A DNA stretch of 64,000 nucleotides from Sedimentisphaerales bacterium (GCA_963708075.1 OY970194.1:6880001-6944000), one strand, 5' to 3'; counted from the first letter of the stretch, positions 6,521 to 31,520 are shown. The notes: generated by a model from the letters alone, not told the origin. Made by a program: numbers and translations.

Positions 6521-6581
6521 AAGATGTCCCCGAAATTCCCCCAAATCACAAATCTCAAATCATAGATCATAGATCCATAGA

Positions 6582-7322
6582 TCAAACCGCCTTTTGCTTC
6601 GCCCGTTCCCGCAGCCACCGGGCGTGGACCTGCCGTCGCCTCTTGACCGGCCACTCCTCGGGAAAGTTCGGCCGGGCCGACTCCCCGAATACCTGGGCCG
6701 CCTTGTAGTCATACGCCCGCGCCGCCTCCACCTCGCTGTCGAACCGCCCAAGACTGTAGTGCTCCTTGCGACAGTCCAGGCCTGCCCGCCATCGACCGGT
6801 CGCCTTGCACCGAGCGACGCCCTTGTAGATGGAACTGCCGCCGGCCCGCTTTCTCGTATTGTGCTGGTTCACCTGATGCGTGGTGTTCCGCAGATTGGCC
6901 CGGGTATTGTCGTACTTGTTGCCGTTGCCGTGATCCACGATCTTGCCCTTCGGCGGCTTCATGATCTCGCGATGCATCAGGACAACCCTGCGTTTGCCGT
7001 TGCGTTTCTCATGCCGTGCCGCGTACCCGCCTTTTGTTCCCCAACGCCATTGATTGAGCCACTCGAAGTCCGCAGCGTCCACATACGCATACAACCCGTC
7101 GCCCAGCGGGATCGTCTTGACCCCCTCTCCCTCCGGCACAGGCGGCCGCACCCGATAATTCCGACACACTGCCCCAACGGGACACGCCTTCATCAGCCCC
7201 GGCGACTCCGGCTGGTTCCCGCACGTCGGCCCAGCCGCCCACCCCGTCCCCAGACTCCGCATCCACAACGCCCGATCCAGATGAGCATAAACACACCTGT
7301 GACAACTCGCCCGCGTCGCCAT
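6582..7322 (-). CDS. HNH endonuclease (HNH_3) + AP2 DNA-binding domain protein with Cys-rich N-terminus
   Basis: MHREIM...VDHGNGNKYDNTRANLR (HNH); S.YKGV..., LGRFDSEVEAARAYD..A...FGE.ARPNF (AP2). Confidence 0.9.
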   Translation of the reverse strand: MATRASCHRCVYAHLDRALWMRSLGTGWAAGPTCGNQPESPGLMKACPVGAVCRNYRVRPPVPEGEGVKTIPLGDGLYAYVDAADFEWLNQWRWGTKGGYAARHEKRNGKRRVVLMHREIMKPPKGKIVDHGNGNKYDNTRANLRNTTHQVNQHNTRKRAGGSSIYKGVARCKATGRWRAGLDCRKEHYSLGRFDSEVEAARAYDYKAAQVFGESARPNFPEEWPVKRRRQVHARWLRERAKQKAV

Positions 7323-7881
7323 GATTCGCCCCTCTCAATCACGTTTGATGTTTGATGTTTGATGTTTGATTTCTCAAGTAGGACGGCCTCTCTTACTTCT
7401 CACATCAACCATCATAAATCAACCATGATCATAGCCGCACTATGATCCTTTGTCCATACAGTTGTTCAAAAATCACCAAATTTTTCTGTGCACACGGTAA
7501 CCCCTTTGTGGCACACGGATTAGGAGTCGCTTTGTCCGCAGATTGCACCGATTTTTGCAGATTTCCAGGACGAATCACAAATCCTAATTCGTAAATCGTA
7601 AATCCGATAGGCCACGGAGAGCGCCGAGCCCACGGAGCGGAATATAAGGATGTAGGGTGGGTTCTTAACCCACGCGGATTCTGATCCTCTCACGCAGAGA
7701 CGCCGAGACGCAGAGGGTGGAAGGAGAAGGGAGAAACGCAGGAAGGGAAGCAGGGAAGGAGGTAAGAACTGCCCCATCGGCACTCAGGGATCGGGGATCA
7801 GGGGCCAGAAATGATTGCTCTGCTGAACCCCGGCCCCTGACCCCCGACACCTGCTGGCCATTCCGCCCACAGTAAGGGGTT

Positions 7882-8656
7882 TCAGCCCACTGGCAATGTG
7901 CCATACGCCCCTTTCTTGAACACATAAATCGCCCACCCCAACGTTTCTCGTCCCCACCTCAGATACGCTGTCTTGCTTTCCCGCACTCGTTTCAGCACGG
8001 TTCTCCACATCAGGATCATCCCGATGGCCACTCGCCCAGCTTTCTGCTGCATACCATTGCAACCCTTCATACTTGTCCCAGTCATCTTGGCTGCTTACGA
8101 GTGTGTAGACGGCCTCCAACCCGTGTTCTTGCCCAGCCTTAACATTCTCATCATGTGTTCCGCAGTTGTTCCTTGTCTGGCCGATGGCCTCTAAATACTC
8201 TCTTTCCGGTTCATGCCGCCAGTAGGGTTCACCCACGACGATCCAACTTTCTGGCGCTGCCATCTTGTATAACGCGTTCAACGTCCCTCCATGCCCGCCA
8301 TAAATCCAACTCGCACCGATGCAGGCCACCAGATCAAAACTCTCTAAGGTCTCTGGGACATACTTAGCCCCATCCATCTCTAAGAAGTGGAGTTGAGCAT
8401 CTGGAACGCGTGTTTGGTGCTTTTTGCGGACATCTGCAATGCAGTAAGGAGAGAAATCAACCCCTGTCCCCGTCATTTGTCGGTGCCGCTCTGCGAGCCT
8501 GATGAGAAATTCGCCCTTGCCAGTGGCGATTTCAAGCACGCATGCACCAGGTTTCAGACGCAGAAGCGTGATGAGCTCTTCAAATTTCTCAGAACTCATC
8601 GGGTTGCAGAACACGTGCTCCCGATGCGTGATGTCAAAGAACTTCCACATGTCCAT
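7882..8656 (-). CDS. Class I SAM-dependent methyltransferase, frameshifted near 8000
   Basis: VLEIATGKGE motif I, ACIGASWIYGG, IVVGEPYW; C-terminus (YLRWGRETLGWAIYVF) in another frame; SD GAGGAGG. Confidence 0.8.
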
Positions 8657-8834
8657 GAGTTTACCTCCTCTGGCGCATTAACATGCTAAGTGCAACACGG
8701 CTCAGCGATCACGAGCCATCCGGTCGCCTATTCACTTGCGTAGATCTGAAGAAACTAGGGACGGACCCTATTTTAGTCGGGGCAATCCGGTTCTTCCAGT
8801 CCGAGTTCTCAAAATCCGACAGCCATCGCACATT

Positions 8835-8944
8835 TCGGCCTCACCACATCTGTCCGGCCCGTGGGGGCCGGCGACCAACTTGTCGCAGCTTCATCAGAGG
8901 TGCAGAACTGACGGGATTATAGCCCTTGCAGGCATGGTCTGCAA
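8835..8944 (-). ncRNA. Promoter + conserved ~85-nt element, copy 1 (putative ncRNA/leader)
   Basis: TTGCAG-17-TATAAT then cacctctgatgaagctgcgacaagttggt...cccccacgggccggacagatgtggtgagg. Confidence 0.55.
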
Positions 8945-9027
8945 GAGGGATGTGACAAGTTTGAAGTGTGATGTTTGAAGTGGGAAGTCGGAGGCTCCGC
9001 CACGCCCAGGATTCCATCATTCCAGAG

Positions 9028-9150
9028 GGAATTCGGGGGACACATTACTTATTTGGCAGGAATTAAGTATTGTGTCCCCAGATCCCCGGCAGTGGACATC
9101 TGGGGACACTATACTCAACTCGGGGCGGAGATAGGTGTCCCCGGAATTCC
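9028..9150. repeat. Two tandem GGGGACAC...GTGTCCCC inverted-repeat units
   Basis: ggggacacattactt...aagtattgtgtcccc and ggggacactatac...ataggtgtcccc. Confidence 0.8.
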
Positions 9151-9162
9151 GCTGTCATGGCT

Positions 9163-11244
9163 TCAGCTACCATAACCCATCAGTTCGTCATTAGACAACT
9201 CCTTGTTTGGCACAAGTCGGTAATGCTTTTCCTCTTTGATCTTTATTTCTCCCTCGGATAACTCGAATTCGAACATCGCAACTAACTCTCCGTCTACAAA
9301 CTGCGTGGCAATCGGACGGCACTTTATCGCTGGAAATTTCGATTTGCAGATGGCAAGGTCTTGTTCTATCTGGATGATGCCAATCATATCTTTGGCGCCC
9401 TTGGCCTGGATAGGAAAAACAAACTGTTCGCCACTCTTGCTGATACCGATGTACAGTTCGTCGATTTCACCTCCACCCATACCCGGTACAGAGGTCCTTA
9501 GATGGCTCTGGAGCGAATAGCAGGTCACCCCTGTAAAGATGTCTATGAGTCGATTATACCGTACTATCGCCAAAAGGGCCTGCTCGTCGCTCAGTGCATA
9601 CCGCCGGATCACCTCTGGCGTAGCATCAGGTACCTTGATCGTGGACAATCTGGGATTTGGCCTAATCTGGTGCATTGAGGCTTTTGCAAATACGTACTTT
9701 GACCGCCCCACAGATCGTATCACCCACTCCTGGTCTGCATCAAGAAGCTTCCTCATGCTTTCGGGTAACGCACCTCTATACCGGAAGGTGTAGGGAATAT
9801 CGCCAAGATTGAGCGGGACTTCTATGCCCAACTCGCCAGCAGCGTCAACAAACTCCTGCCGCTCGAAGTATACCTCGGTGGCACCCTCCTTGTAGTGCTT
9901 GAAGAACACATGCTCGATGATCTGGGCATAACGAGTGGGGTTTCTCCCTTCCTTTGTCTTCTTTTTCGCCATCTTCTTCTCCCCTGGCCATTCCAGAACC
10001 AAGACTTCTTCACGTAGTTGTTCACCTGTCGCTGTCGATAAACGTGTTCTAAACAAGTCAAGCGAAAGGACTTCGTACCCGATCTCGTGGGCGATATCGG
10101 CCAGAAGCTCTCCCGTGCGGATTAGGACCTGTAGGAATGATGCTTGGTCACCAACAACGTAGGCCAACTTCGCACCAGGTTTCAGGACCCGTTTCATCTG
10201 CTCGAAATGTCGTTTCATTCCGCCAAAGTACAGTTTTGTGACTCGATGGTATAGGCGTTCAAAGCCAGAGTCCTTGTTAAGATCTATGCGCCGCCTCTCG
10301 ATTTCATCTGCAATCGCGTTTATTCTGCGATTGCCTGAGACGGCCAGGTCATCGTCATCACTACGATAGACATTTCGCGTATTGGAACGGAGCAGGCTCT
10401 CTTTAAGCAAACGCAAATCCTGCTTGGATCTTACGAAACCGAGGAGGACACTCTCAAGGCGTGTCGTACGCGTATAGTCCTTCTCATTCGGGTATGGAGG
10501 CGATGTAATCAGTCCATCGACAGAGCCTGGCGGAAGGTCACTAAGCATTTGCCTTGCATCTCCGAGCACACATTTCGCGTCAACGGAGGTAAGAGCCGCA
10601 AACTCTCTGAGGTCGCCAGCCATTTCATTGATCTTGTTCAACCAACTCTCAAGAACAGGCGCGTCAGTCTTCTTGTTGCTCCCTACGCCCACCTCAGGTC
10701 CAAACTTCAGATTGCTCGCAACAAACACTGAAACGAACGCAAATGCTAGCAACTCAATGTTGCGCAGCGATGGATCGCGCCCTCTCTCTATCGCTTCACG
10801 AAGGATGAGACACTTATGGAGTGGGAGCGGACTGATTGAATCCGTAAGAAGCAGATTCTCCTCTTCGCCGGGCAAGGTCCGTCGTTCACCGTTCCATTCC
10901 TCCATTGCGCGGTGCGCGCGTTGAACGACTGCGCCCGCATGCTGAACAAGTCGCTCAGGCTCGACAGACCAGTTTGTTTTCACCTTTGATGCGAAGCATG
11001 CCATAGGATGAGCTTCAACGCCGTAAGCTCTGATCCCATTCTTCTTCGCCTCTACAAGAGTTGTTCCCGTTCCGCAGAACGGGTCCAGAACCAGATGATC
11101 CCGGGTCAGTCCAAAGCGGGAGAAATAGGTCCGCACAAGATGCGGCGGGTAGGACAAGACAAAACGGTACCAATCGTGGAACGCGCGATCCGCGTCTTTC
11201 AACTTGTTGTGACGCAAGTCTTTAGGTGCTAACAATTCTTCCAT
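9163..11244 (-). CDS. Amino-DNA methyltransferase (SPPY, N4C-type) fused in-frame to putative restriction endonuclease
   Basis: VLDPFCGTGTT and ITSPPY motifs; C-terminal EIDELY...PIQAK PD-(D/E)xK-like motif; internal SD+ATG at 9972. Confidence 0.8.
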   Translation of the reverse strand: MEELLAPKDLRHNKLKDADRAFHDWYRFVLSYPPHLVRTYFSRFGLTRDHLVLDPFCGTGTTLVEAKKNGIRAYGVEAHPMACFASKVKTNWSVEPERLVQHAGAVVQRAHRAMEEWNGERRTLPGEEENLLLTDSISPLPLHKCLILREAIERGRDPSLRNIELLAFAFVSVFVASNLKFGPEVGVGSNKKTDAPVLESWLNKINEMAGDLREFAALTSVDAKCVLGDARQMLSDLPPGSVDGLITSPPYPNEKDYTRTTRLESVLLGFVRSKQDLRLLKESLLRSNTRNVYRSDDDDLAVSGNRRINAIADEIERRRIDLNKDSGFERLYHRVTKLYFGGMKRHFEQMKRVLKPGAKLAYVVGDQASFLQVLIRTGELLADIAHEIGYEVLSLDLFRTRLSTATGEQLREEVLVLEWPGEKKMAKKKTKEGRNPTRYAQIIEHVFFKHYKEGATEVYFERQEFVDAAGELGIEVPLNLGDIPYTFRYRGALPESMRKLLDADQEWVIRSVGRSKYVFAKASMHQIRPNPRLSTIKVPDATPEVIRRYALSDEQALLAIVRYNRLIDIFTGVTCYSLQSHLRTSVPGMGGGEIDELYIGISKSGEQFVFPIQAKGAKDMIGIIQIEQDLAICKSKFPAIKCRPIATQFVDGELVAMFEFELSEGEIKIKEEKHYRLVPNKELSNDELMGYGS

Positions 11245-11874
11245 GAATCCCAGAGCCGTCTGCATTACAGGGTACACCTATCTGTCCCGAATACAACGAG
11301 ACCGGGTCATTGTAGGGCCGTTGCCCCGCTTCCGCAAGCCGCTTACGGGGAATTCCACGCTGACCTCGATTAGTCTCAAGGTGAGGGTCTGGAGCCTTGG
11401 GGCAGGGGAATCAGTGTCCGTGGCTTGGTCTTTTTCCGGTTGTTGGCATGTCAGGCGAGGGTATAATGGCTCATGGCTGGGAGAAATCAGCCGGGGGGGA
11501 AACGGGGTCAGGTCCTGCAATGTGGAATTATTAGGAAGATGTGGTGTGCGGTGCACGCCCTACAGGATTGTGTCTCTCGCGAAGGCGCGAAGGGCAGAGA
11601 GGGTTTCGGGTTGTTAGTTGTTGGTTGCCCATAGGGGAGGTGGGGATATAATGGCTTTGGCTGGGGGCATCAGCAGGCAGAAATCTGCGGCGCCGGGCGA
11701 ATGTGAGGGCGCCTACTGGTGAAGGGCCGAATAATGAGCACGTGTCAGGAGTTGCGGGCCGGTGCAGACGAGGGGACTGGATAGAGGAATTGCATGGACG
11801 AGCTAGGGAAGGTGGAACAACCGGAGGGGCGGGACACGCCGAGCCAAGCTGAGCCGGTGGGCGGCCAGATCCTA

Positions 11875-12049
11875 GGAGGACCGGGGGTCGCACCTGCGCA
11901 CCTACACATTTCACTTTCCGCAAATCTCCGCGTCCTCTTCGGTTCTCACCACAACTGTCCGGCCCGTGGGGGCTGGCTACCAACTTCTCGCAGCTTCATC
12001 AGAGGTGCACAACTGACGGTATTATGGCAGACGCGGGCGGAGGCCGCAA
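11875..12049 (-). ncRNA. Promoter + conserved element, copy 2, followed by gtgaaatgtgtaggtgc-gacccc site
   Basis: TTGCGG-17-CATAAT; same core as copy 1. Confidence 0.55.
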
Positions 12050-12756
12050 GCCGAAAGTGATAGGCGATACGTGATAAGTGGCAAGTGTGAAGCGGGAAGC
12101 CGGGGGGGGCGGGAGGCCCGGATTTCGGATTGCGGAATGACCAGCAGGTGTCGGGGGTCAGGGGCCGGGGTTCAGCAGGGCAATCATTTCTGACCCCTGA
12201 TCCCTAATCAGTGTTCATCCGGGTTCATCAGCGGTTTTCATTTTCTCCGTGGCCTCCGTGCCTCCGTGGTGAGAGACTCTGGATTCCCGCCTCCGCGAGA
12301 ATGACATGGAATCCGCGTGGATTGAGAATCCACCCTACACACTACTCTCTGCGTCCCTGCGTCTCCGCGTGAGTTGATCTTTTTTCGCGTAGTTCGCGTC
12401 CCCCGATCGGGTCGAGGGCAAGCCTTCGCGGTCGAGAATACGCGTGGGTTAAGAACCCACCCTACTACTTCGTGGTCTTCGGGCCCTTCGTGGTGGAGAG
12501 CCTGGATTCCTGCCCTCGCGGGAATGGTATGGAATCCGCGTGGGTTGAGAACCCACCCTACATACTGAAAACAGCCGGAATGGTCGTGCGGGGACGCATG
12601 ACCCCCGATCAGGTCGGGGGCAGGCTCTACGAAGAGGCTTATGGATGGCCACCGTATTCCGGCCGTGACTCCCGGTGCGCGGAGGGCGATTGTGCGAAAC
12701 GAAACCAGTCGGCGGGCTTGGCTCAGGACACAACGGGTCAGGATTGGCGTTCCGGA

Positions 12757-14304: not shown

Positions 14305-14615
14305 AGTTTTTCTCCTTAATGGTCTCCGGGACAGGACAGACTCTACACGGGGGTCGTGGCGCTTTCAAGCCCAAAAGCCCGGTGAGCTGTAGGGGTTTCT
14401 GTGCCTGCCGTGGCGGGTGCCGGCGTCACAATCACGGGCTCGCCCGGAACCATCCCGTGAGCCAATGTCGAATGTACAGACATTGGGCGGAGAAAAGGCG
14501 GGGTGTGCTTTGAATATACACTGTCCGAAGGGCGAGACGATCAGGCCTTTAGATTGCTCGGACGGTGTGCCCGATTCGGGGGCGGAATCGCAGATATGGA
14601 GGTTCTCTGCGTATC

Positions 14616-15404: not shown

Positions 15405-15414
15405 CTCGAAGGAA

Positions 15415-15489
15415 TCGGGGTGACTGGACTTGAACCAGCGACCTTGTGGTCCCAAACCACACGCTCTAGCCAAACTGAGCTACACCCCG
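15415..15489 (-). tRNA. tRNA-Pro(UGG), CCA not encoded
   Basis: CGGGGTG acceptor, D arm AGCTCAGTTTGGCTAGAGC, anticodon loop TT-TGG-GA, T loop GTTCAAGT. Confidence 0.97.
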
Positions 15490-15765: not shown

Positions 15766-16195
15766 CGTGGCAAGGGCGTCCGGCCCTTGTCTGCAACGGC
15801 AAGAGGGGCGCCGCCGGAGCTTGCCAAGCATAGAGGCCACTCCGCCGCCGGGAAGAGCTCTGCGCGGCCTCCGACCGCAACCAAATCAACTCGCGCAGAG
15901 ACGCCGAGGCGCAGAGATAATGCAACCGCCGATAAACGCGGATGCCGACCCTGTCATTCCTGCGGAAGCAGGAATCCATCTTCTGGGAACTGACAACCCA
16001 CAACTGACAACTGACCATTCTGCCACAGAGGACACGGAGCCCGCAGAGGAAGACTCCAAGAACCGGCAACTGACAACTGTCCTCAATCCGCAATCCCCAG
16101 TCCCTTACTGCCTCCGACTTCTCACTTCGAACATCAAACTTCACACTTGACACTTCCTCCCAATCATAAATCATAAATCATAAATCCCAACGCTC

Positions 16196-16408
16196 TTGCC
16201 TTCTCCGCCTGCCTTCGCCATAATACCGGTAGTTTTGCACCTCTGAGAAAGCTGCGACAAGTTGGTTGGCGGTCCCCATGGGCCGGACTGATGTGGTGAG
16301 GCCGATATGAGTGGGACGGCCATAACGGCGTCAAGGCCGAGGGATAAATGAGACTGAGGAAGGCGGAAATAGGTGACTGTCCCTAGATTCCACCTCTAGA
16401 TTCCACCT
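16196..16408 (+). ncRNA. Promoter + conserved element, copy 3, followed by ataggtgactgtccctag site
   Basis: TTGCCT-17-CATAAT; diverged core (ctgagaaagctgcgacaag...ccccatgggccggac). Confidence 0.5.
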
Positions 16409-16448
16409 CCGTTCTTCCTCATGCTTCGACCAGCACCCGGAATTTGCC

Positions 16449-17822
16449 TCAGCCCTCGGCGACTGCCAGCTTCGCGTCGGGAATCGCTGAAGCGTCGATG
16501 TCCCCATTCCACAGGTACCTGCGCGTTTCGAGGACCACGACGCCCGACAGCGCGAACAGAGAAATAACGTTCGGAATGACCATCAGGGCATTGGCGATGT
16601 CGGCGAACGACCATACCGCTCGCAGCGTCGACAGCGAGCCGACCATCACGGCCGCCACCCAGAGCAATCGATAGGGTTTTACGACGCGCGAACCCAACAG
16701 GTATTCCGCTGCCTTCTCGCCATAGTACGACCACCCGAGGATCGTTGAAAAGACGAAGGTGAGGAGGCTCACGCTCAAGACGATGGGCCCGACAAACGAC
16801 ATGCCTTCGAACGCCACCTTTGTCAGCGCGGCCCCGTTATGCCCCTGTATCCACTGGCCGGAATTGACGATCACCAGGCCCGTCAGGGCGCAGACAACGA
16901 CCGTATCCCAGAACGTGCCGGTCGAGGACACGAGGGCCTGCCTCACCGGATTCTTCGTCTGGGCGGCGGCGGCGACGATCGGCGCGCTGCCGAGCCCCGA
17001 CTCGTTGCTGAAGAGCCCCCGGGCGATCCCGTACCGCGCCGCCTCCCTGACCGTTGTCCCGAGAAATCCTCCGACGGCCGCCTGTCCCGTGAAGGCCCCT
17101 GAGACGATCAGGCGGATGGTCTCGGGAATCGTTTCGTAGCGCATAGCCAGTAGAATGATCGAACCGATGACGAAGAAGATGGCCATGAATGGCACGAGCC
17201 ATTCGCACCAGGCGGCGATGGATTTGATGCCGCCGAGAATGACCAGGGCGGTGAGCGCCGTGATAACGATCCCTGTGATCCACTGCGGCACGCCGAAGGT
17301 CTCGCGGACCATGGCGGCCACCGAGTTCGCCTGCACCATGTTCCCGATGCCGAAGGCGGCGATCGTCGTGAGCCCCGCGAAGACGAGTCCGAGCCAGCGG
17401 CAGTGCATCCCGCGTTCGAGCACGTACATCGGGCCGCCCGCCATGGCTCCCGATTTCGTCGTGATGCGGTACTTGACCGACAGCACCGCTTCCGCGTACT
17501 TGGTCGCGATCCCGAAGACGCCCGTAAGCCAGAGCCAGAGGACCGCGCCCGGCCCGCCCGATGCTACGGCCGTGGCGACGCCGACGATATTGCCGGTGCC
17601 GATCGTCGCCGCCAGCGCCGTCGTCAGGGCGCCGAACTGACTGATGTCGCCCTGGCCCTCCTGCGAACGCTTCACGGACAGCCGGATCGCTTTGCCCACA
17701 TACCTCTGAATGAAACGCAGCCGAATCGTGAGGAAGATATGAGTCCCGAACAGGAGGATGAGCATGGGGGGACCCCACACGAGATCGCTTAACCACGCGA
17801 GTAACTTATCAACGGCCTCCAT
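16449..17822 (-). CDS. Alanine/glycine:cation symporter (AGCS family)
   Basis: ALAATIGTGNIVGVA, GGPGA, RGLFSNESGLGSAP, FSTILGWSYYGE. Confidence 0.95.
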   Translation of the reverse strand: MEAVDKLLAWLSDLVWGPPMLILLFGTHIFLTIRLRFIQRYVGKAIRLSVKRSQEGQGDISQFGALTTALAATIGTGNIVGVATAVASGGPGAVLWLWLTGVFGIATKYAEAVLSVKYRITTKSGAMAGGPMYVLERGMHCRWLGLVFAGLTTIAAFGIGNMVQANSVAAMVRETFGVPQWITGIVITALTALVILGGIKSIAAWCEWLVPFMAIFFVIGSIILLAMRYETIPETIRLIVSGAFTGQAAVGGFLGTTVREAARYGIARGLFSNESGLGSAPIVAAAAQTKNPVRQALVSSTGTFWDTVVVCALTGLVIVNSGQWIQGHNGAALTKVAFEGMSFVGPIVLSVSLLTFVFSTILGWSYYGEKAAEYLLGSRVVKPYRLLWVAAVMVGSLSTLRAVWSFADIANALMVIPNVISLFALSGVVVLETRRYLWNGDIDASAIPDAKLAVAEG

Positions 17823-18150
17823 GCCTTGGCTCCTTTGCCGAGATTCCAAATGACAGAACGAATGAGAAGATTCTATCAAAGGCAAGCCATCGGTCAATGA
17901 TCTGCATCAATGGGCTAAGGTGCCGCATCATGCGGCGTTCCGTCATCGCCCGGCCCCGCCGTGCCCCCAACCGGCAACTGCCAACGGATTATCAACCGCG
18001 GATAAACGCAGGTGAACGCCGATTTTCAACCTGTAATTGCCTTTTCATTCCGCATTCATCATCGCCTCCGACTTCCCACTTCACACTTCAAACCACTTAT
18101 CACCTATCACTTCTCACTTGCGGGCCCCGCCTGACAGGCACACACGCTGC

Positions 18151-19593: not shown

Positions 19594-20028
19594 AAGTCGT
19601 GATCCTCCTGGCCTGCGACAATCAAAACCACCTGCTCCAACGGTTCTCTGTTCAGTAGTGATCCTACCAGCGATTTGGCTCACAATCAAGGCCGGCCATT
19701 CTCCCAATGCCCGGAACCTCACGCCGCCCCCTGATCCCTCTGTCCACCGTCAACTGACAACTGAGAACTGACAACAACTGATCATCTCGCGCAGAGACGC
19801 CGAGGCGCAGAGGATAGTACGTAGGGTGGATTCTCAACCCACGCGGATTCTGATTGTTCGCCACGGAGAGCACCGAGAACACGGAGAACAGAGCATCAAA
19901 GGCGATGGGGGAGGAACGTAGGAAGGGAAGAAGGTAAGGACTGCCCAATCCGCATTCCGCAATCACACGGCCCCGCCGTGCCTTCTCATTCCGCATTCCG
20001 CAATCCGCACTCCGCAATCGGAAGCCTC

Positions 20029-20192
20029 TTGCCGGCCCCGCCCGCGTCTGCCATAATACCGGCAGTTTCACACCTCTGATGAAGCTGCGAGAAGTTGGTC
20101 GGTGGCCCCCACGGGCCGGACAGATGTGGTGAGGCCAAAGAGGACGCGGAGATTTGCGGAAAGTGAAATGTGTAGGTGCGACCCCCGGTCCT
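20029..20192 (+). ncRNA. Promoter + conserved element, copy 4, with site
   Basis: TTGCCG-17-CATAAT; core; gtgaaatgtgtaggtgcgacccc. Confidence 0.55.
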
Positions 20193-20407
20193 CCCCGCTA
20201 GCGCTCTGAGTGCCGAGGGCTTTGCCGAGGCCTTTCGACGGTTCGCATCTGATGAGGACGCTTCGCGTGTCCCTCCGGGGACTTTGGCGTCTGTCTTGTG
20301 GAGCGTCGAACGGCTGGGCCGGAGAACCATCACTTTCGACGGGTCACAGTAGCAGGGTGGGCTGTGTCCATCGCTCTTGTCTGAGTACCGGCTACCGCCT
20401 TTTTCCC

Positions 20408-20573
20408 TTGCGGGCCCCGCCTGCTCGTGCCATAATACCGCCAGTTCTGCACCTCTGATGAAGCTGCGAGAAGTTGGTTGCGGGCCCCCACGGGCCGGAC
20501 AGATGTAGTGAGGCCGAAGATGACGTGGGGATTTGCGGAAAGTGAAATGTGTAGGTGCGACCCCCGGTCCTCC
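20408..20573 (+). ncRNA. Promoter + conserved element, copy 5, with site directly before cargo genes
   Basis: TTGCGG-17-CATAAT; core; gtgaaatgtgtaggtgcgacccc; ATG at 20591. Confidence 0.55.
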
Positions 20574-20590: not shown

Positions 20591-21514
20591 ATGAGCGACA
20601 CAGAACCGAACCAGAACGAGACCACCCTGGGCACGAAGCCTAAGCCGTTCGTCTTTGTGCTGATGCCGTTTGCGAAGGAGTTTGATGATACCTACCAGCT
20701 TGGCATTAAGGCAGCTTGTGAGAAGGCAGGAGCATATGCACAGAGGCTTGACGAGCAGCTATTTAACGAGAGCATGCTGCAACGCATTTACAACCAGATC
20801 GCCAAAGCTGATGTCATTGTGGCAGATATGACTGGCAGGAATCCCAACGTCTTCTACGAAGTAGGGTATGCTCATGCTCTCGGTAAGGTCGTGATCCTGC
20901 TGACGCAGAAGAACGAGGATATACCTTTTGATCTGAAACATTACCGGCACATCGTCTATGAGAATGTGGTTAGTTTACAACCACAACTTGAGACGGCCGT
21001 TCAATGGGGAGTGAAGCAGGCCAGCGGGGAGGCACTGCCTAAACCCCCGATTGCGGTCTATCATGAAGATAGGCCTTTGATTGACAAACCAACTATTGTG
21101 TTCACGCTATACCATCCTAAGACACAGTTGGACCGGTCACGCATTCGATTCTCTTTGACGTACGGCAATATTGATGAAGTAAATACGGTGCGGTGTAGAA
21201 TGGCCATATGGACCTCCAAGCTGTTCCGAACCGCTCAATGGTACGACAACCTGGGTCCGCCGCCTGTGGATGGAGGACCAACAATATATCCAATACTACA
21301 TCCTACTCAACGGAAGATTTTCACTTGTCCAGTGGTCATGTCCTTGCTACCGGAAGAATGGCGATCAGATGTGTTAGTGCTTGGAATGCGAACCGATGAC
21401 CTGAAACATGGTGAGCAGTATTTCACCGAAGATATGGTACTCCGCGTCTCCACACAATCCGGCAGCTATAGCTATCCCTTCACAGCAAGGATCGAGCAGG
21501 ATAAGAAACAATGA
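20591..21514 (+). CDS. Nucleoside 2-deoxyribosyltransferase/TIR-like N-terminal domain + unknown C-terminal domain
   Basis: FVLMPF, ADVIVADMTGRNPNVFYEVGYAHALGK, IPFDL. Confidence 0.75.
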   Translation: MSDTEPNQNETTLGTKPKPFVFVLMPFAKEFDDTYQLGIKAACEKAGAYAQRLDEQLFNESMLQRIYNQIAKADVIVADMTGRNPNVFYEVGYAHALGKVVILLTQKNEDIPFDLKHYRHIVYENVVSLQPQLETAVQWGVKQASGEALPKPPIAVYHEDRPLIDKPTIVFTLYHPKTQLDRSRIRFSLTYGNIDEVNTVRCRMAIWTSKLFRTAQWYDNLGPPPVDGGPTIYPILHPTQRKIFTCPVVMSLLPEEWRSDVLVLGMRTDDLKHGEQYFTEDMVLRVSTQSGSYSYPFTARIEQDKKQ

Positions 21515-22410
21515 TTGCCACAAAGACCGTACTGGTGTTGGGAGCAGGAGCGAGTGCTCCGTATGGATTCCCTACAGGTGGGGCATTGGTCGAACTAATC
21601 GCGAATGATTTTGCATCACCACGATTTGCGAAAGCCGAAAAAGTCATGCCGGAAGGATACCGAATCTTGACAGGCAGACTAAGACAGGCACAACACAATT
21701 CCATTGATGAGTTCCTTGAAAACCATCCATCATTTGCGGACATTGGGCGACAAGCCATAGCACTTCACTTGCTCCCGGCGGAATCCCATTCAGGAGCCAC
21801 CCTGATGGATTTGACCAAGAAGGATCACTGGTACAGATACCTGAAAGGGCAGTTGGGCCCTCTTGGTACATTCGGAAAGAATCAACTCAGGATCATCTCC
21901 TTCAATTACGACAGATCAGTGGAGCACTACCTGTACGAGACTTCGCGGACAAGCGATGAGCGGATCAATGATCAACAGTGTGTGGAGATATTGAAGCAAC
22001 TCCCTGTACTTCATGTCTATGGCAACTTGGGGCCATTACCTTGGCAGTCGCGTATCGGGACCATACCCTATGGTGGTAGTACCCCAGAACCATGTGCAGA
22101 GGAGATTCGACAAGCAGCCATGAACATCAAGATTCTACATCAGGGAACTGATGACGAAGTGCAACAGAATTTTCGGATTGCTCAAGAATGGCTGAAATGG
22201 GCTGAGAGGATCGTCGTTCTGGGCTTCGGATTTCACCACGCCAATGTTGAACGACTCGCACTCACTGAGACGTTTCAAGGCAAAAGAGAAGTTGTAGGTA
22301 CATGTAAAGACTTGGCTCTGACGAACAGGGCGGCTGCTTTACATGTTACTTTCCCCCGACCTGCTGCCGATTGCTACACACTACTGCACGATCATGTTGT
22401 TCTGTTATAG
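21511..22410 (+). CDS. SIR2-like (SIR2_2/AbiH-like) protein
   Basis: LVLGAGAS.PYGFP, IISFNYD, LHVYG, IVVLGFGF; ATGA-coupled to upstream gene. Confidence 0.75.
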   Translation: MIATKTVLVLGAGASAPYGFPTGGALVELIANDFASPRFAKAEKVMPEGYRILTGRLRQAQHNSIDEFLENHPSFADIGRQAIALHLLPAESHSGATLMDLTKKDHWYRYLKGQLGPLGTFGKNQLRIISFNYDRSVEHYLYETSRTSDERINDQQCVEILKQLPVLHVYGNLGPLPWQSRIGTIPYGGSTPEPCAEEIRQAAMNIKILHQGTDDEVQQNFRIAQEWLKWAERIVVLGFGFHHANVERLALTETFQGKREVVGTCKDLALTNRAAALHVTFPRPAADCYTLLHDHVVLL

Positions 22411-22746
22411 GTGCGAGGGGACAATGGGGGGAATAGAGGGTCACACCTACGGGGGAATAGAGGGTCACACCTACACATTTCACATTCCCGTCATTTCGGA
22501 GGGTAGCCAAATGTATAGAAGGGACCTTCGCGGGGTCACATTGCGAATTAGGAATGATTCCGGAATCGGCTCGCGAACACCCTGGAGTTCGCTGTCCGTC
22601 GTCACTCGGTTTCAGGTTTCTGTGCGAACGGCGCGACTTGCCGGTACAACCGGGAAGGGACGGCAAGTCACGATGGGACAAGAGGCAAGTAGTTGCACAA
22701 TCCGAGTCATTTCTCTATAATGGGCAGGGTGCACGAGGATCAGTCA

Positions 22747-25757: not shown

Positions 25758-25781
25758 CCGGACAGGACGGAACCCCCTTAT

Positions 25782-26159: not shown

Positions 26160-26495
26160 AGGCTACAAGTTCCATCACATGCAGCGCCGCAGATGACATA
26201 AAGAACACCCCAAATGCCCCGCCTCCTGCAATAGTTGAGAACCCACGCAGTGAAATCATAGGGGATCAAGAGAGGAGGGGTGCTGCCGTGGGTTAGCGCG
26301 CTGTCCCTCTCGCGAGGGTATCCCGACAACACCCCATGCTTACAGACGCTTCTCGCGGGCTGGATATGGATGGAAGAATGAAAATCCTGTATTTGCACGG
26401 GCGGAAAACGGCCCGTACACCGCCCAGACCGCCATGAGCGATGACGTCATCCTTGGCCGCCGCGATGGAGCGGGCGACACAGACAGCTCACATGG

Positions 26496-27443
26496 CTATT
26501 GCAGCAGGGCCTTGAGCTGGCTTTGGAGTTGGCGGTCGGTCTGCAAACGCTGCTCGGCCCGGCGGCAGGCGTGCGAAACCGCTGACTCGCCTACACCGAA
26601 ATGCTCGGCAATCTCGCCCAGGCGAAATCGACCCTGCCGCCACAGCAGGTATATCAGCACCTCCCGCATGGGTCGCTCCCGGTGCCGGATCGGCCGAAGT
26701 AGCGACGCATACTCCTGCGAATCGATCCTCAGCCTGCGGCGGTATTCCGCCAGATGCTCCTGGATCGTCCCATGCGATTGCAGGGCTCGCAACTGGGGCT
26801 TGTCTGGCTCTCGCAGGCCTTGCACACGCTGACGCAGCTCCTCCACCACGGCCTCGCTGCCCAGCACCAGGCCATAGTGCAGGCTCGAAAACAGCTCATC
26901 CGCCCGTTCATCGTATCGCCGCACCGCCTGGCGAAAGCCCCTGGCGTCGAGATCCAATTGCTCGTACACCAGCCGTGCATCAAACCACGCCGGCCCGCCC
27001 CGGCCATACGCCAACGCCCGGTAGCTGCTCCAGCGGTAATCCTCCAGTCGTTCCGCGAGCCTGGCCCGCAGGGGATTGCGATGGATATACAGCAGCAATC
27101 GCTGGAGATACTCGGTCTCTTGAATGAGAAAGCTCTTGAATCTCCCCTGGAACAGGTGCCCGCTTCGCCGATGTCGGCGATTATGCCATGAGCCGTACGC
27201 CACTTGCAGCCACTGCATCGCCGCCGAGAGGTTCGCTTCTTGGGTCTTGACCAGAAGATGATAGTGGTTGCCCATGAGCACATAGGCGTAGATGTCGAGA
27301 GAGAACCGTTCCGAGCACCGGCCCAGTCGGTCAAGAAAGTCCTCGTAGTCGTGCTCATCGCGAAAGATCGCTCGCCGCTCATTGCCGCGATTGAGCACGT
27401 GATAGAATGTATCTTCCTGATCGATGCGTAACGGCCGTGCCAT
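26496..27443 (-). CDS. RAYT-like Y1 (HUH) transposase with C-terminal HTH
   Basis: MARPLR, YHVLNRGNER, YVLMGNHYHL (HUH), GHLFQGRF, YIHRNP, YRWSSY; C-terminal EIAEHFG..SAVSHA. Confidence 0.9.
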   Translation of the reverse strand: MARPLRIDQEDTFYHVLNRGNERRAIFRDEHDYEDFLDRLGRCSERFSLDIYAYVLMGNHYHLLVKTQEANLSAAMQWLQVAYGSWHNRRHRRSGHLFQGRFKSFLIQETEYLQRLLLYIHRNPLRARLAERLEDYRWSSYRALAYGRGGPAWFDARLVYEQLDLDARGFRQAVRRYDERADELFSSLHYGLVLGSEAVVEELRQRVQGLREPDKPQLRALQSHGTIQEHLAEYRRRLRIDSQEYASLLRPIRHRERPMREVLIYLLWRQGRFRLGEIAEHFGVGESAVSHACRRAEQRLQTDRQLQSQLKALLQ

Positions 27444-27544
27444 GAACAGCAGAGTACAACGTCACGAACGGTGCCGTCAAGCAAATAATTCCTTATTCAA
27501 GACGTGACCCCGTTTCCGCTTTTCATTGTCCGCTCCCCCGTCTA

Positions 27545-28108
27545 TTATAAGCCAATGATTATATACTTGATATAGCATGCAGAACCAAGCCTTTCATTGT
27601 AGAGCAGAAGGTTAGCATCAAGCCAACTCAGACCGACATTGTCCTCTCCCACGTAGTAAGTCTCCCACGCGTCCCATTTCGCCAGATCAAACCAACCCGG
27701 CTGCGGGCGTCCCTCTGTGTACAATTCTATGTCCATGTAGTACTTATCGGTAGTCTTGAAGCGGAGGACTCCTTTGGAATATTGAGCCGCTTCCCATTGC
27801 TTGAACTTTCGTGCAGCAATCAGATGTGACAGGTCCTCCCGGGTAATCAGAAAGCGCAGCACATATGCATGCTCGCGAGATCCGTACAGCCCTATGAGAT
27901 GCGACATCTGGCAGTGGTCCGCTTCAATCCTGTGCACCGACCCTGGAATCGGCTGCACCACGAAACGCCGGAACATGAGTGGTCCATACAGGAAAGACCT
28001 GGTGACAATCAGCGTTACTAATAGAAGCACCGCAATACAGCAGACGGCTCCCACCACGACCGGATGTCGGCATTTCCTAATCATGTCCAACGATCCTCGC
28101 AATTTCAA
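27545..28108 (-). CDS. Hypothetical membrane-anchored protein, putative immunity protein
   Basis: N-terminal TM; AT-richer; immediately downstream of Rhs tip; start uncertain. Confidence 0.55.
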   Translation of the reverse strand: MKLRGSLDMIRKCRHPVVVGAVCCIAVLLLVTLIVTRSFLYGPLMFRRFVVQPIPGSVHRIEADHCQMSHLIGLYGSREHAYVLRFLITREDLSHLIAARKFKQWEAAQYSKGVLRFKTTDKYYMDIELYTEGRPQPGWFDLAKWDAWETYYVGEDNVGLSWLDANLLLYNERLGSACYIKYIIIGL

Positions 28109-28114
28109 CTGCTA

Positions 28115-28892
28115 TTAGGGCACAGTCTGGGGTACGGCCCAAAGCCAACTGCTGCCCGGTAGCGCCTTAGCTGCAGACTCATATATACCCCATTGTCCTC
28201 TGATCACATACGGAGTACCGTTGTCAAACTCCAAATAGCCCATTTTAGCATCATCAAATATGTTCCACATATCAAAGGCATCGCGGAACCAGTCCTCGAA
28301 CCAGAAGTTGAATTTGATGTCAATAGCCCCACTGCCGTCCATGTTGTAAGCAACCACAACCGTCGCGTCTAGATTCAAGTAGCCACGTCCAAGCACCACT
28401 AGATTGTCCAGCCAACTAATATATGGAGGTCCGAAGTTATACAACTTCCTTACATTATGAGGGAATTCCTGGCGCCCGAGTGGCCGGTCGCCCAGTTCTT
28501 CAGCGGAAATCTCCCCATGCCTGTAGCGTGCGGCCCTTGCGAGCCATTCTGCATCCGCTTCGGCAATCTTGTCGAATCGATCGGTAGCCATCTGCCGCAC
28601 CTCGCTGCAGAAATCCCGCACATATTTCTCTATTTGGCGACTTCCCTTAAATACATCAAGCAGACCTGTCTGGGCCAGATCAAGTGTTTCGCCACCTTTA
28701 TTCACATACCACCACCAGAAGTTCTTCTTAGTCCATCGTGACACACTAGCCGGGTCCTCCATTGCTCCAGGAGCGACGAATGCCGCAGGCCATCTGGAGC
28801 CAATCATAACCATCTTCCCATCCCTCTCCTGCCATACAGTCACATCACCTGAAGGATCTAACGCATTCAATGGGCTGTTCGCACAATAGAGA
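28115..28892 (-). pseudogene. Orphan Rhs C-terminal toxin tip
   Basis: Begins LYCANSPLNALDPSG (Rhs PxxxxDPxG junction) with no proper start. Confidence 0.75.
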
Positions 28893-28923
28893 TCATAGAG
28901 GGTCACACCTACACATTTCACAT

Positions 28924-29934
28924 TCATCGCAGTGCTTTAAGGCTCTGTTCGATCTGCGACCAGGCTTCCAGGAGTTTCTTGTCCCGACGAAGCGTCTGCT
29001 CGGCGCGGTCGCGGGCCATCGTCAGGCCACTCAGTGAGATGTCGAAGCGTTTCGCCAACGCGGTCAAGCTCTCTCCCGCTCGGCTGTAGCGGCACACGCC
29101 GTAGATCAGTAGTTGCCTCGCACGGCGGTCCGAGCCGCGCAGCGTCAGCAGGCTCTCCGGCCGGACTCCGCAGTGGCGCCCCACACAGCCGGCCACCGCG
29201 TCAAAAGGAATCGACTGCCGGGCCCGCTCGAACGCCGGCTGCTCTCGCCGATCGGCGTTTCGCGTCAGCACGTAGGTCCGCCGAATGTGGTCAAGGAAGG
29301 TCTCCGTCCCCAGGATCGTCTGGCCCTCCAGTCGGGCCAGCGGGTTGTCCAACTCCCGCAGCAGGCCTTCCTCGACGTACTGGCCATATCGCCGCATCTG
29401 AACGCGTCGGCTCGCCCCCCAGTCCGACAGAAGCGGCCCGGGATCAAACCACTTCGGGCCCGGCGACAAGCCGATGCAGGCTGCATAGCTCGACCAGCCA
29501 AACGCACGCAGCGCCCGCCGTCTGGCCGACACGGACGCCGGCCGCAGTGCCTTGGTCCGGACCGGATTGAGATGGATGTAGCGTGAGACCTCGCCGCCGT
29601 AGGCGTCATTCTCGACCAGATGGGCCGTGAAGCGGCCCTGGAAGACGTGCCCGCGGCTGCGCCGACGGCGGTTGAGGCTGATCGTGAAGCTCGTCAGAAG
29701 GCTCTGCATGAAGCGGCTGAGATTCGCCTGCTCGGTCCGCAGGTACAGATGGAAGTGATTCGGCATGCAGCAGTAACACAACAGCCCCACCTCGAACTGC
29801 CGGCTGAACTGGCCCAGCCGCTCCAGGAACAGCTCATAGTCTCTCGCCTCCGTGAACACGGCCTGCCGCCCATTGCCCCGATTCATCACATGATAGCAGG
29901 CACCCGCATACTCGATCCGCAACGGACGAGCCAT
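28924..29934 (-). CDS. RAYT-like Y1 (HUH) transposase with C-terminal HTH, second paralog
   Basis: MARPLRIEY.GA.YHVMNRGN, MPNHFHL, GHVFQGRF, YIHLNP, WSSY. Confidence 0.9.
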   Translation of the reverse strand: MARPLRIEYAGACYHVMNRGNGRQAVFTEARDYELFLERLGQFSRQFEVGLLCYCCMPNHFHLYLRTEQANLSRFMQSLLTSFTISLNRRRRSRGHVFQGRFTAHLVENDAYGGEVSRYIHLNPVRTKALRPASVSARRRALRAFGWSSYAACIGLSPGPKWFDPGPLLSDWGASRRVQMRRYGQYVEEGLLRELDNPLARLEGQTILGTETFLDHIRRTYVLTRNADRREQPAFERARQSIPFDAVAGCVGRHCGVRPESLLTLRGSDRRARQLLIYGVCRYSRAGESLTALAKRFDISLSGLTMARDRAEQTLRRDKKLLEAWSQIEQSLKALR

Positions 29935-30109
29935 ACACAGTCTCCTTTCAGACAAGCAGATCTGCAACGTCCGCCAGAATACACCGGACCCGTGGGCCTC
30001 GTCAAGAGCAAATATGAAATGTGTAGGTGTGACCCCGTATTCTCTGGAGGACTGGCCCTCCAGGGTCGGTCGGCGAGGGCAGGCGGCAAAGGCGGCAAAT
30101 CGCCCCGGT

Positions 30110-30255
30110 TTCCGCCGCTCATTGCCGCGATTGAGCACGTGATAGAACGTATCCTCCTGATCGATGCGTAAGGGTCGTGCCATGAGCACCAGAGTACAAC
30201 GTCACGAACGGTGCCGTCAAGCAAATAATTCCTTATTCAAGACGTGACCCCGTTT
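30110..30255 (-). pseudogene. Truncated duplicate of first RAYT 5' end with its promoter and site
   Basis: Near-identical to 27375-27515 (MARPLRIDQEDTFYHVLNRGNERR). Confidence 0.85.
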
Positions 30256-30331
30256 ACCCCCCCCCGAGTATTGTGTCCCCGGAACCCGGAGGTGGCTGTT
30301 CCCTGTATACACAAATGCTATATCGCGACTC

Positions 30332-30967
30332 CTACTCTCCAAGGAGCGGGGCAATGCACGTCACCACTTCCTGTGCCTCTGCCAACTCCTTGAGTTGCGG
30401 GTATAACTCTCGCAGTATTGTCGATATCCTTCGATCATTTTGTCTTATGACCAAGCAGAACCGCAAATAGCGAGGCTCCGGTGGGCGCACTGCGGCTGGG
30501 CCATTGGCGATTTGCCCATCATAAGACACTCTGAGTCGTTCGCCTGCCAGTGGCTGGCATGAAAATGACCGTTTCTCCAGACCCTGTATCTGTCCGATTC
30601 TTCTGCGACCTGTTGGGATTAGGAGCCCCTCTGCAAGTCGATATGAAACACGTGGTTCCTGTGTGGCATCGCGCTGCAGACAGAGGATGATTGTCATAGC
30701 CTCTGCGCTCAACTGGCCGCTGCCCTCCCAGCGTAGAATTGCCACAACGCGATCCCGTGATGCGCAATGCCAGCCTTTGAAGTGATAATTGTAGCTTCCT
30801 CCGGGCTCCGAAGACCAAGCTACATTGGGCTTCTTAAATGGCATCTCAACACCCTTGTCACATGATGAGCAGAACAATCCGAAAGAAATCAATACGCCAG
30901 TCATACCATAGACGGCCCTATGCATTGGCATCCTCCACGTCAATTGTCTCAATCTGAAGAACATCAC
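30332..30967 (-). CDS. Hypothetical lipoprotein-like protein, possible orphan immunity
   Basis: Hydrophobic stretch + CSSC lipobox-like; AT-richer; bracketed by inverted sites. Confidence 0.5.
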   Translation of the reverse strand: MMFFRLRQLTWRMPMHRAVYGMTGVLISFGLFCSSCDKGVEMPFKKPNVAWSSEPGGSYNYHFKGWHCASRDRVVAILRWEGSGQLSAEAMTIILCLQRDATQEPRVSYRLAEGLLIPTGRRRIGQIQGLEKRSFSCQPLAGERLRVSYDGQIANGPAAVRPPEPRYLRFCLVIRQNDRRISTILRELYPQLKELAEAQEVVTCIAPLLGE

Positions 30968-31029
30968 AGGTCAAACCTCACTCATTTAGCTCCTGTGGGG
31001 TTCCGGGGACACAGTACTTACAGTACTTA

Positions 31030-31520
31030 TTTCTCATAGGATCGTTTCCGCAATACTCGTAGGGATTCGTCCCGTCGCCAGCCGGGTCGGTTTGGAGGCA
31101 TCTTCCGATGTAGGGGTTGTAGTATCTGGCGCGGTAGTAGTACAGGCCGGTGTCGGCGTCGAACTCCCGGCCGGTGAACAGGAAACGGTTCGGATGGTTC
31201 GGATCGCTGGCGCTTGTCTCGCCATAGACGCTGTACTCGTAGAGGTTCACTACCGAGCCTGCGGAGTTCGTCAGGGCTACACAGGAGCCCAGGCCATCGA
31301 AGTGATAGTAGTACGTGGCGTTGCTGTTGGCCACGTCGATCATGCAGATCGGCTGATCCACGCCGGGACCGTAGATGTACTTGTGCAAGAGGCTGTCGCT
31401 GCCGTCGTACTCGGCGATGATGTGCTGGCCATCGTAGAGGTACTTCATCACCGTCTGGCCGTCATAGGCCTTCTCGATCCGCCGCCCGGCCGAGTCATAG
31501 CCGTACGTGCTCGTCAGCCA
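31030..31520 (-). pseudogene. Rhs repeat-associated core fragment
   Basis: YGYDSAGRRIEK, YHFDGLGS, FTGREFDADTGLYYYRARYYNP.IGR.LQTDP, NPYEYCGNDP. Confidence 0.9.

Follow-up and report, generated by a model that had tools for sequence, protein, structure and literature searches.

TIRtron ends, a promoter module and changing accessory genes in the genome of a Sedimentisphaerales bacterium

In a 64,000-nucleotide (nt) stretch of the genome of a Sedimentisphaerales bacterium (C1:6880001-6944000, hereafter the window), two genes for Y1 proteins, R1 and R2, lie among short related sites, accessory genes of low GC content and five copies of a conserved module. The genome is a single contig of 7.5 Mb with a GC content of 0.604. 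An initial annotation had read the two proteins as transposases of repetitive extragenic palindromes (REPs), of the REP-associated tyrosine transposase (RAYT) kind, that shuffle toxin, immunity and defence cassettes at the sites. Our analysis confirmed its observation and supported its interpretation in part. The enzymes and the sites belong to a known system, the TIRtrons. What is new are the exact ends of a recently moved copy, solo terminal inverted repeats (TIRs) with a polarity, a promoter module and cargo that changes.

R1, R2 and the ends of their elements

Both Y1 genes match PF01797 and are intact, and each product carries an HUH motif, a Y---NP tyrosine and a DnaA domain IV-like C-terminal domain (coordinates are in Table 1). 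H60, H62, Y119, N123 and P124 were invariant in 13 of 13 aligned proteins. For the C-terminal helix-turn-helix (HTH), a profile search matched DnaA (237-330, E 9e-9), and the AlphaFold2 model of R2 (mean pLDDT 85.5) matched 4ER8, the DnaA DNA-binding domain 3PVP (TM 0.85 by target) and the IS608/ISDra2 structures. R1 gave a weak DnaA match. The R1 and R2 proteins scored 75 and 66 bits against NF047646 (cut-off 80), and the nearest relatives of the window Y1 protein bear Planctomycetota, Phycisphaerae and Sedimentisphaerales titles.

TIRYT and TIRtrons were named by Di Nocera et al. 2013 (PMC3733652), with TIRs that follow GGGGWSAS and are found singly, as dimers or in clusters. Quentin et al. 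2018 (10.1101/279083) equate TIRYT with subclass 2.1.2, which is without REPs. On domain content, length and TIR consensus, R1 and R2 classify as TIRYT of subclass 2.1.2. Because the Y1 proteins fit this subclass, whose TIRs match GGGGWSAS, the sites of the window are known TIRtron ends and not REPs; the earlier statement that no described system has such sites and enzymes is thus superseded. GTAG-tagged palindromic REPs were absent from the flanks of R1 and R2, where TIRs stand instead; in this genome, GTAG REPs stand on the flanks of other Y1 genes (C1:2264463, 2148789 and 3442532). The idea of RAYTs acting on REP hairpins was abandoned, since the proteins are TIRYT and their sites have neither REP tag nor hairpin.

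We counted 19 sites in the window, each made up of an RGGG(A/T)C core and a tail rich in AT; all those previously listed exist, within ~25 nt of where they had been placed. The first base of the G core lies at 6531(-), 8757(+), 9036(+)/9079(-), 9102(+)/9142(-), 11504(+), 11884(+), 16384(-), 20185(-), 20564(-), 22461(+, with a stutter copy at 22437), 22532(+), 27511(-), 28899(+), 30036(-), 30251(-), 30280(-) and 31005(+). When 20-mer seeds from the window were searched at ≤3 mismatches, 12 of the 19 had 4 to 31 genome copies against 0 to 1 in a shuffled genome (seed 11884 was mis-registered in that run). The genome scan that the initial annotation had proposed, with a position weight matrix trained on this genome and a threshold of at least 18 bits, returned 157 sites compared to 6 in the shuffle.

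Four types of TIR tail, here named A, B, C and D, occur in this genome. R2 pairs with type A, R1 with type B, two shorter elements with type D and one fragment with type C. R2 is flanked by GGGGWSAS TIRs at 28899 and 30036, and further TIR-flanked elements lie at C1:4612301-4613077 and C1:4636826-4637604; for R1, a left TIR and no right TIR was recognized. Relatives in Verrucomicrobia, Lentisphaeria, Aminicenantes and one gammaproteobacterium have the same GGGGTCA ends, often with tandem stutters.

A second copy of R2 with its ends (28893-30042) lies between different flanks at C1:478624-479773 and is 99.6% identical. Identity between the copies stops 6 nt outside the G core on both sides, and the comparison revealed no target-site duplication and no contiguous empty target. 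The second copy thus defines the ends, and the suspicion that the sites belong to the Y1 enzymes proved right. A contig from an independent soil run matches 28895-30042 apart from 36 differences, beyond which its DNA is unlike. At locus L101 two elements abut, 13 nt core to core, and other near-identical end pairs share 4 to 10 outer bases, a few of them 0. Partial copies begin at a TIR and stop at variable points (30112-30263; C1:477893 and 481590; seven tandem left ends in L015). Of 162 TIRs, 14 have a perfect tandem repeat of at least 8 nt on the outer flank and 2 have one on the tail side; the figure behind stop codons is 6 of 642. Judged from these copies, TIRtrons have moved, with the ends given here and without target duplication. 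The shared outer bases, partial copies and stutters suggest that the enzyme cuts 6 to 10 nt outside the core and that joining is repeated and partly abortive. Solo type-A TIRs are conserved up to base 27 and unique beyond it (15 in this genome, 30 in congeners), an end point that plain decay of longer elements does not predict.

Other details of these elements were seen. A third TIRYT (C1:5283300-5285900) has three tandem re-started 5' copies, joins of G/A-rich low-complexity sequence and iterated short repeats at its right end. Four partial R1 copies (C1:481962, 2287303, 4587453 and 4445223) end at about codon 101-106, where the internal sequence looks like outer flank plus a G core; a cryptic cut site or a single ancestral truncation may explain this. 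An ATG overlaps the R2 stop, with its frame open through the TIR into an RHS-type tip (28115-28927), and across the other TIR, R2 and the partial R1 copy share a frame (28924-30189). Two gene-less mini-TIRtrons of 260 nt, 98% identical, flank two FGE-sulfatase genes at C1:5813026-5815671 in the shape of a composite transposon.

The promoter module, TIR polarity and cargo

Five sites of the window (8757, 11884, 16384, 20185 and 20564) are preceded by the same promoter and conserved element, as initially annotated. Its sequence features mark the element as a putative promoter-leader-ribosome-binding site-short open reading frame (ORF) module of ~120 nt, and not as a structured RNA. A profile search found 36 module copies in the genome and 0 in the reversed control; the module was present in 20 of 23 congeners and, outside the genus, in 0 of 17 genomes. 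Over 120-190 nt, the copies are 65-90% alike. The predicted sigma70-like promoter, TTG-N3-17-(C/T)ATAAT, occurs in 91 of 114 full copies, 85 of them with a 17-nt spacer. A GGTGAGG-like ribosome site and a start codon are also found; among 77 such starts, 65 belong to ORFs of ≤45 codons and 7 lead into long genes.

Two other identities of the module were rejected. For a noncoding RNA, as the initial annotation had suggested, a hammerhead or riboswitch included, there was no Rfam match, RNAalifold placed 0 consensus pairs on 26 copies, and folding z-scores ranged from -1.0 to +0.8. Nor is the module a MITE, a miniature transposable element with inverted repeats, because a left TIR lies within 700 nt in only 12 of 127 copies. 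Runs of a 7-nt tandem repeat fill intergenic DNA, often directly upstream of the module (6544-6576, 7340-7430, 15990-16190, 19940-20020 and 23320-23800).

What follows the module? We compared 142 module loci (a metagenome scan, 60 fetched congener regions with some of 163 congener matches, and this genome). A TIR of varying type, oriented tail to core, comes after the module in 19 of 31 copies here compared to 0.6% of control positions; the same order was found in 37 of 97 copies outside this genome, and the wrong orientation in 6 of 97. The first gene downstream is in sense in 58 of 65 outside loci, at a median distance of 127 nt. Only 7 of 65 of these first genes have a homolog in this genome, versus 27 of 65 upstream genes (p 2e-4). 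GC is lower downstream of the module in 62 of 83 cases, and 37 of 63 first genes behind it are without a Pfam match at E 1e-7. At the sequence level, the promoter therefore stands before a site and ahead of sense cargo, in a position like that of integron Pc, in agreement with the earlier proposal.

The TIRs themselves have a direction. Genome-wide there are ~150, many of them solo 27-mers, with the G end toward AT-richer DNA and bracketing intact genes. The kilobase on the core side was AT-richer than that on the tail side at 85 of 123 TIRs (GC 0.555 versus 0.584), and core-side GC was the lower at 71 of 105 outside the window (p 3e-5). The core-side kilobase fell below GC 0.56 at 74 of 123 TIRs compared to 6.7% of random kilobases, and two of four control repeat families (56 and 59 copies) had no polarity. 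Adjacent TIRs of opposite orientation 0.4 to 6 kb apart comprised 29 pairs with cores inward versus 9 with tails inward (p 0.002), a pair set that includes module-linked TIRs added at relaxed score. In 17 of 29 cores-inward brackets, the coding fraction, taken from a simple in-house gene caller, was at least 0.8. The TIRs of a bracket share their type in 9 of 29 cases (chance, 8.6), and those of tails-inward pairs in 30 of 32. The two borders of a cargo thus appear to have been made independently, and not as the ends of one cassette.

At the cargo borders of the window, GC falls to 0.49-0.53. The earlier view that the sites border AT-richer cargo holds at these borders and agrees with the genome-wide polarity; it fails at 16384, which has no cargo, and at the HNH-AP2 gene (6582-7322), a multi-copy host-type gene of GC 0.64. 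None of the window's cargo occurs a second time in the genome. Scanning 73 low-GC proteins of 20 selected TIR clusters revealed Fic, DUF2971, DUF4238, HD-CE, PIN, STAND NTPases, SIR2, MmeI, CdiI immunity and many orphans. Between R2 and R1, the RHS-type tip ORF starts with a YC.N.P...DP.G motif and shares its frame with an ATG that lies within the R2 end. The proteins of this cargo (27545..28927) had no Pfam or NCBIfam match, and the ESM Atlas gave unnamed clusters only; the motif and the position suggest toxin and immunity roles. The cargo of modules is accessory and often defence-like, not defence alone, so the strictly conflict-related cargo of the initial annotation did not stand. As a separate observation, RHS core genes lie within a few kilobases of TIRYT genes or fragments in L014, L016, L017, L018, L084 and L085, loci that were picked by those matches, so that RHS-specific targeting is a lead only. 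In a contig of sequence run X4, an RHS core stands <1.7 kb upstream of R1, with different DNA in between.

Cargo differs between orthologous loci. Among the cross-genome pairs examined, 10 have host flank and module in common and a different first cargo, against a rough chance expectation of 0.6-3.8. These include ilvC (88% amino acid identity), uxaC (79%), L186/L250 (93% and 90%), L206/L262 (91% and 85%) and the window's own locus; the count excludes the same-species pair L186/L190 and pairs within one locus, and 3 more weak upstream-sharing pairs lie outside the examined set. In L185, the ortholog of the window's alanine symporter gene stands beside two tandem modules with other cargo, and in the window an additional sulfatase lies in between. 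The accD-hisC interval holds, in this genome, the module, a TIR, 1.7 kb of cargo and a closing TIR and, in genome G013, the module and ~280 nt, which makes a filled/empty pair. Similarity stops at the TIR in L206/L262 and L186/L250. Three pairs have the same cargo behind the module at different host loci; a fourth "shared cargo" pair, L204/L224, was dropped because there was no match at the protein level. The cargo polymorphism sought at the sites is therefore present, in ten orthologous pairs that include the empty/filled one. The empty/filled comparison worked from the collected module loci only, as synteny was too poor around the window's own flanks in GTDB congeners. As an observation apart, the alanine symporter gene (16427-17847) has 88% DNA identity to two congeners versus 71-82% for its neighbours, a possible sign of recent exchange.

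How cargo may come to lie at TIRs

Which process could generate this arrangement? The model that we put forward, and to which we give an even chance of being right, is that the loci are dispersed platforms for expression and capture, at which TIRYT joins and replaces cargo one TIR end at a time, catalysis being presumed. Each TIRYT would have its own TIR of 26-27 bp, and its DnaA-like C-terminal domain probably binds the AT-rich tail (Quentin et al. 2018 doubt that the HTH recognises the TIR). The HUH domain would nick 6-10 nt outside the GGGG core and join the end to foreign DNA; sequence comparison shows that intact TIRtrons, mini-elements, partial copies and bare TIRs are deposited without target duplication. 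Because the module sits on the tail side of the TIR, to which it is fused, transcription from its promoter, if active, should pass the TIR into DNA joined at the outer edge. Foreign genes would be joined, trimmed and replaced end by end at that edge, the replacement being presumably enzyme-driven, and the far border would be an independent event involving any TIR type. Orthologous loci show that the module stays where it is in the host as cargo changes and sometimes travels with cargo. The outcome would be dozens of dispersed platforms of one to three genes that work like Pc plus attI, without integrase or attC. That TIRYT enzymes make the cargo junctions is what we infer from these data. A broader claim is more tentative, and we lean somewhat against it: that TIRYT ends and the promoter module form an integrase-free HUH gene-capture class that ligates and later replaces foreign DNA, through which the genus samples and expresses defence and other accessory genes. 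Such a class would also provide a first function for the second-largest Y1 subclass.

Several observations weigh against the platform model. Type-A TIRs in five congeners had no significant polarity (12 of 21, p 0.23), and polarity was absent from the Aminicenantes genome G042 (13 of 26), where TIRs are mostly dimers; G043 (3 TIR matches) and G041 (5 usable) had too few for this test. One-sided low GC was also found for the GTAG REP (22% of 80 copies) and for a 9-copy repeat (67%). Of 97 outside copies of the module, 60 are followed by a decayed TIR or by none, as scored with the matrix built from this genome, and so are 12 of 31 copies here. Antisense genes follow the module in 7 of 65 loci, some modules precede host-type genes (sulfatase, oxidoreductases, hisC), and PADLOC defence enrichment is not significant (13 of 65 downstream versus 6 of 64 upstream, p 0.13). 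Of the 10 orthologous pairs, 5 have one member in which a further gene separates host gene and module, and the ortholog comparison is limited by congener species that are only ~75-87% alike, with poor synteny. No circle or excision junction was seen in the sequence runs, evidence that consists of assembled contigs and not raw reads and in which uncovered parts carry no information. Contigs of run X1, possibly the source of the window, agree with its arrangement at low depth; joints in X4 contigs were discarded as deriving from repeats of other organisms.

A different history, which we consider unlikely, is that TIRYT copied a one-ended module plus TIR, as a mobile promoter, before genes that arrived otherwise, that selection kept the useful copies and that differences in cargo reflect island turnover. 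The variable upstream lengths shared by module copies, together with the rarity of a left TIR noted above, speak for this history, as do the partial TIRYT copies that likewise start at a TIR and end variably, the three pairs in which module and cargo have moved together, and the many host loci that carry the module in one genome only. However, at ten orthologous loci the module is retained while cargo differs, above rough chance, the breakpoints in L206/L262 and L186/L250 lie at the TIR, and the solo TIRs that close the far end of cargo are left unexplained.

Homologous recombination is improbable as the main cause. In this case TIRYT would merely have seeded repeats, and modules of 120-190 nt and TIR dimers would serve as RecA anchors for DNA exchange. 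The likeness among module copies, the occurrence of cargo behind modules at different loci and the decay of TIRs at many swapped loci would fit such exchange. It does not account for the stutters, nor for similarity that breaks off sharply at the outer edge of the TIR; with 27 nt, solo TIRs are too short to act as anchors, and most cargo is without a homolog in the genome. We rate as equally improbable that the TIRs are debris of ordinary TIRtrons that inserted into dispensable AT-rich islands and decayed to their ends, with no role in gene acquisition. The monomers, dimers and clusters already described (PMC3733652) and the missing polarity in G042 agree with debris, yet debris should have a variable interior, whereas solo TIRs stop at position 27, and it predicts neither polarity nor a module in fixed order and orientation; for this genus it is already weakened.

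Least probable of all, and in our view very doubtful, is a true integron analog, in which cargo with a cognate site pair is excised as a circle and reinserted or reordered at a promoter-proximal site: tight brackets around intact genes and, at some loci, tandem modules and direct TIR repeats agree with it, but against the cassette shuffling that the initial annotation had in mind speak bracket types that match at chance level, window cargo that is single-copy, the lack of long cassette arrays and contigs without a circle joint.

How do these loci compare with known systems? With the TIRtron/TIRYT family (RAYT group 1) they share the HUH/Y1 core, the Y---NP motif, the DnaA-like C-terminal HTH, GGGGWSAS TIRs, dispersed monomers and dimers, and the lack of REPs. 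The available parts of PMC3733652 and 10.1101/279083 report no transposition, end definition, cargo polarity or promoter module; here, a recent copy fixes the ends, TIR tails are enzyme specific and solo TIRs border accessory genes. Subclass 2.1 occurs in ~15% of the strains sampled by Quentin et al. 2018 (10.1101/279083), without known activity, and Bertels et al. 2017 give a duplication rate of 6.2% for RAYT group 1, the TIRYT group. In the literature searched, which lies outside subscription journals, two works mention TIRYT, and no cargo, promoter or integron-like role of it was found. TnpA-REP enzymes of subclass 2.1 beside diversifying prochlorosin genes (10.1101/2020.03.09.984088) were proposed to act in diversifying recombination, a causal claim that was later softened; the fixed geometry with enzymes is similar, and that work found no TIRs, whereas here TIRs are the junctions.

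Integrons resemble these loci in having a promoter, a ribosome-binding site and a short ORF before the site, sense accessory genes of promoterless type, and changing cargo at a fixed platform, as far as the sequences go; the Pc and ORF-11 of class 1 integrons (PMC8876359) may be likened to the module. Unlike integrons, there is no IntI over cut-off (TIGR02249, 0 matches in the whole genome, in line with the initial annotation), no attC arrays appeared in a heuristic scan, and the sites are inverted, not direct. The ~30 platforms of 1-3 genes are dispersed and have unmatched far borders, and the candidate enzyme is an HUH nuclease. A heuristic genome scan, made with no attC covariance model, found no attC array (47 scattered candidates). 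An attC-like half-hairpin that starts with GCATTAAC and is never complete occurs in the window (8672-8741), at C1:5285919-5285992, 4614387-4614465 and 4344857-4344892, and in L084, L085, L053 and L198; at several of these loci its end coincides with a TIR junction, and it may be the end of another mobile element. Targeting of attC was considered from four half-hairpins that end at a TIR, but we do not claim it, because the piece occurs in another repeat beside a TIRtron and there is no full attC array.

GTAG-REP RAYTs and REPINs have the same protein fold, and type-C dimers resemble their non-autonomous inverted doublets. Unlike them, the TIR is without GTAG tag or hairpin and the enzymes have an extra DNA-binding domain; the GTAG REPs of this genome have their own RAYTs. 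IS200/IS605 and IS91/ISCR are HUH elements in which a tyrosine nicks and joins DNA without target duplication, and IS91/ISCR undergo one-ended transposition. Partial TIRtron copies from one end recall IS91/ISCR, whereas TIRs are symmetric, in place of an asymmetric hairpin or ori/ter, and there is no TnpB.

Because this genome offers a recent copy whose ends are exact, several pairs of enzyme and TIR that differ in their tails, and predictions of where the cuts lie, the activity of TIRYT is directly testable. If the platform model is correct, the integron problem, the capture and expression of promoterless genes, would have been solved a second time and by unrelated chemistry. It would also make the module a marker for mining new defence genes.

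Features of the window

Table 1. Features of the window, numbered from its first nucleotide (a dot marks features with no single strand)
Feature	Position	Strand	Remarks
TIR, degenerate	6506..6537	-	G core toward 3' end of HNH-AP2 gene
S-adenosylmethionine-dependent methyltransferase cargo, GC 0.54	7784..8656	-	Pfam Methyltransf_25; congener L083 has module before an ortholog
TIR, type D	8751..8782	+	after module E1; core toward methyltransferase start
Module E1	8831..8947	-	-35/-10, leader, ribosome-binding site, short ORF (predicted); before site 8757
Two type-C TIR dimers, tails inward (9036/9079, 9102/9142)	9030..9148	.	9142 core 21 nt past stop of restriction-modification cargo
Fused type II methyltransferase-endonuclease cargo, GC 0.51	9163..11277	-	PADLOC REase_II E 2e-109, MTase_II; TIRs 11504/9142, cores inward
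TIR, B-like	11498..11530	+	5' border of restriction-modification cargo
TIR, type A, with 7-nt internal stutter	11875..11917	+	after module E2
Module E2	11942..12050	-	before site 11884
tRNA gene	15415-15489	-	window
Module E3	16193..16309	+	before site 16384
TIR, type D, with 13-nt outer stutter	16359..16410	-	without cargo; adjoins 3' end of alanine symporter gene
Na/alanine symporter gene, host flank	16449..17897	-	L185 ortholog 87% amino acid identity
Module E4 fused to type-A TIR (core 20185, minus) plus 9 outer bases	20026..20194	+	before site 20185
Module E5 fused to type-A TIR (core 20564)	20405..20573	+	cargo ATG 27 nt later
Cargo operon, GC 0.49	20591..22410	+	two genes between E5/20564 TIR and closing TIRs
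Nucleoside-deoxyribosyltransferase/TIR-like protein	20591-21514	+	PF05014; PADLOC TIR effector E 3e-11
SIR2-like protein	21511-22410	+	PADLOC SIR2 E 3e-7
Closing TIRs: type A 22461 (24-nt stutter copy 22437) and TIR 22532	22428..22557	+	behind the cargo operon
TIRYT R1 gene, 315 amino acids	26496..27443	-	PF01797; cognate of type-B TIRs
R1 left TIR, type B	27483..27517	-	core 34 nt from cargo stop
Cargo between R2 and R1, GC 0.51	27545..28927	-	RHS-type tip ORF and candidate immunity gene
TIRtron R2, 1150 bp	28893..30042	-	inverted type-A TIRs plus 6 outer bases each side
TIRYT R2 gene, 335 amino acids	28924..29934	-	PF01797; HUH H60-x-H62, Tyr119 in YIHLNP; C-terminal DnaA domain IV-like HTH
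Partial R1 left end (TIR, promoter, first 24 codons)	30112..30263	-	96% identical to 27373-27515; tblastn
Type-C TIRs 30280(-) and 31005(+), cores inward	30266..31030	.	surround orphan ORF 30332-30967, GC ~0.51
RHS core fragment	30978..31667	-	TIGR03696 E 9e-19; TIR tail cuts it at YCGNDP motif; genome's only Rhs core

A 370-nt repeat with dozens of genome copies occurs twice in the window (6148-6515 and 35906-36272), each time with two Acido-Lenti-1 RNA matches (41.7 and 36.4 bits; gathering score, 37), and it had no link to low-GC DNA. Two features lie outside the TIR brackets: an ISKra4-like transposase (36564-37856) that is present in several genome copies and scored 172 bits, under the cut-off, and a low-GC ORF with a weak likeness to PADLOC PDC-M15A (40663-41577). 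An LptF/LptG permease gene (4983-6201) is in two frames, with relatives that align to both parts side by side, which reflects a frameshift or an assembly error. A periplasmic-binding-type gene (12757-14304) has an 88.8% identical paralog at C1:3898475.

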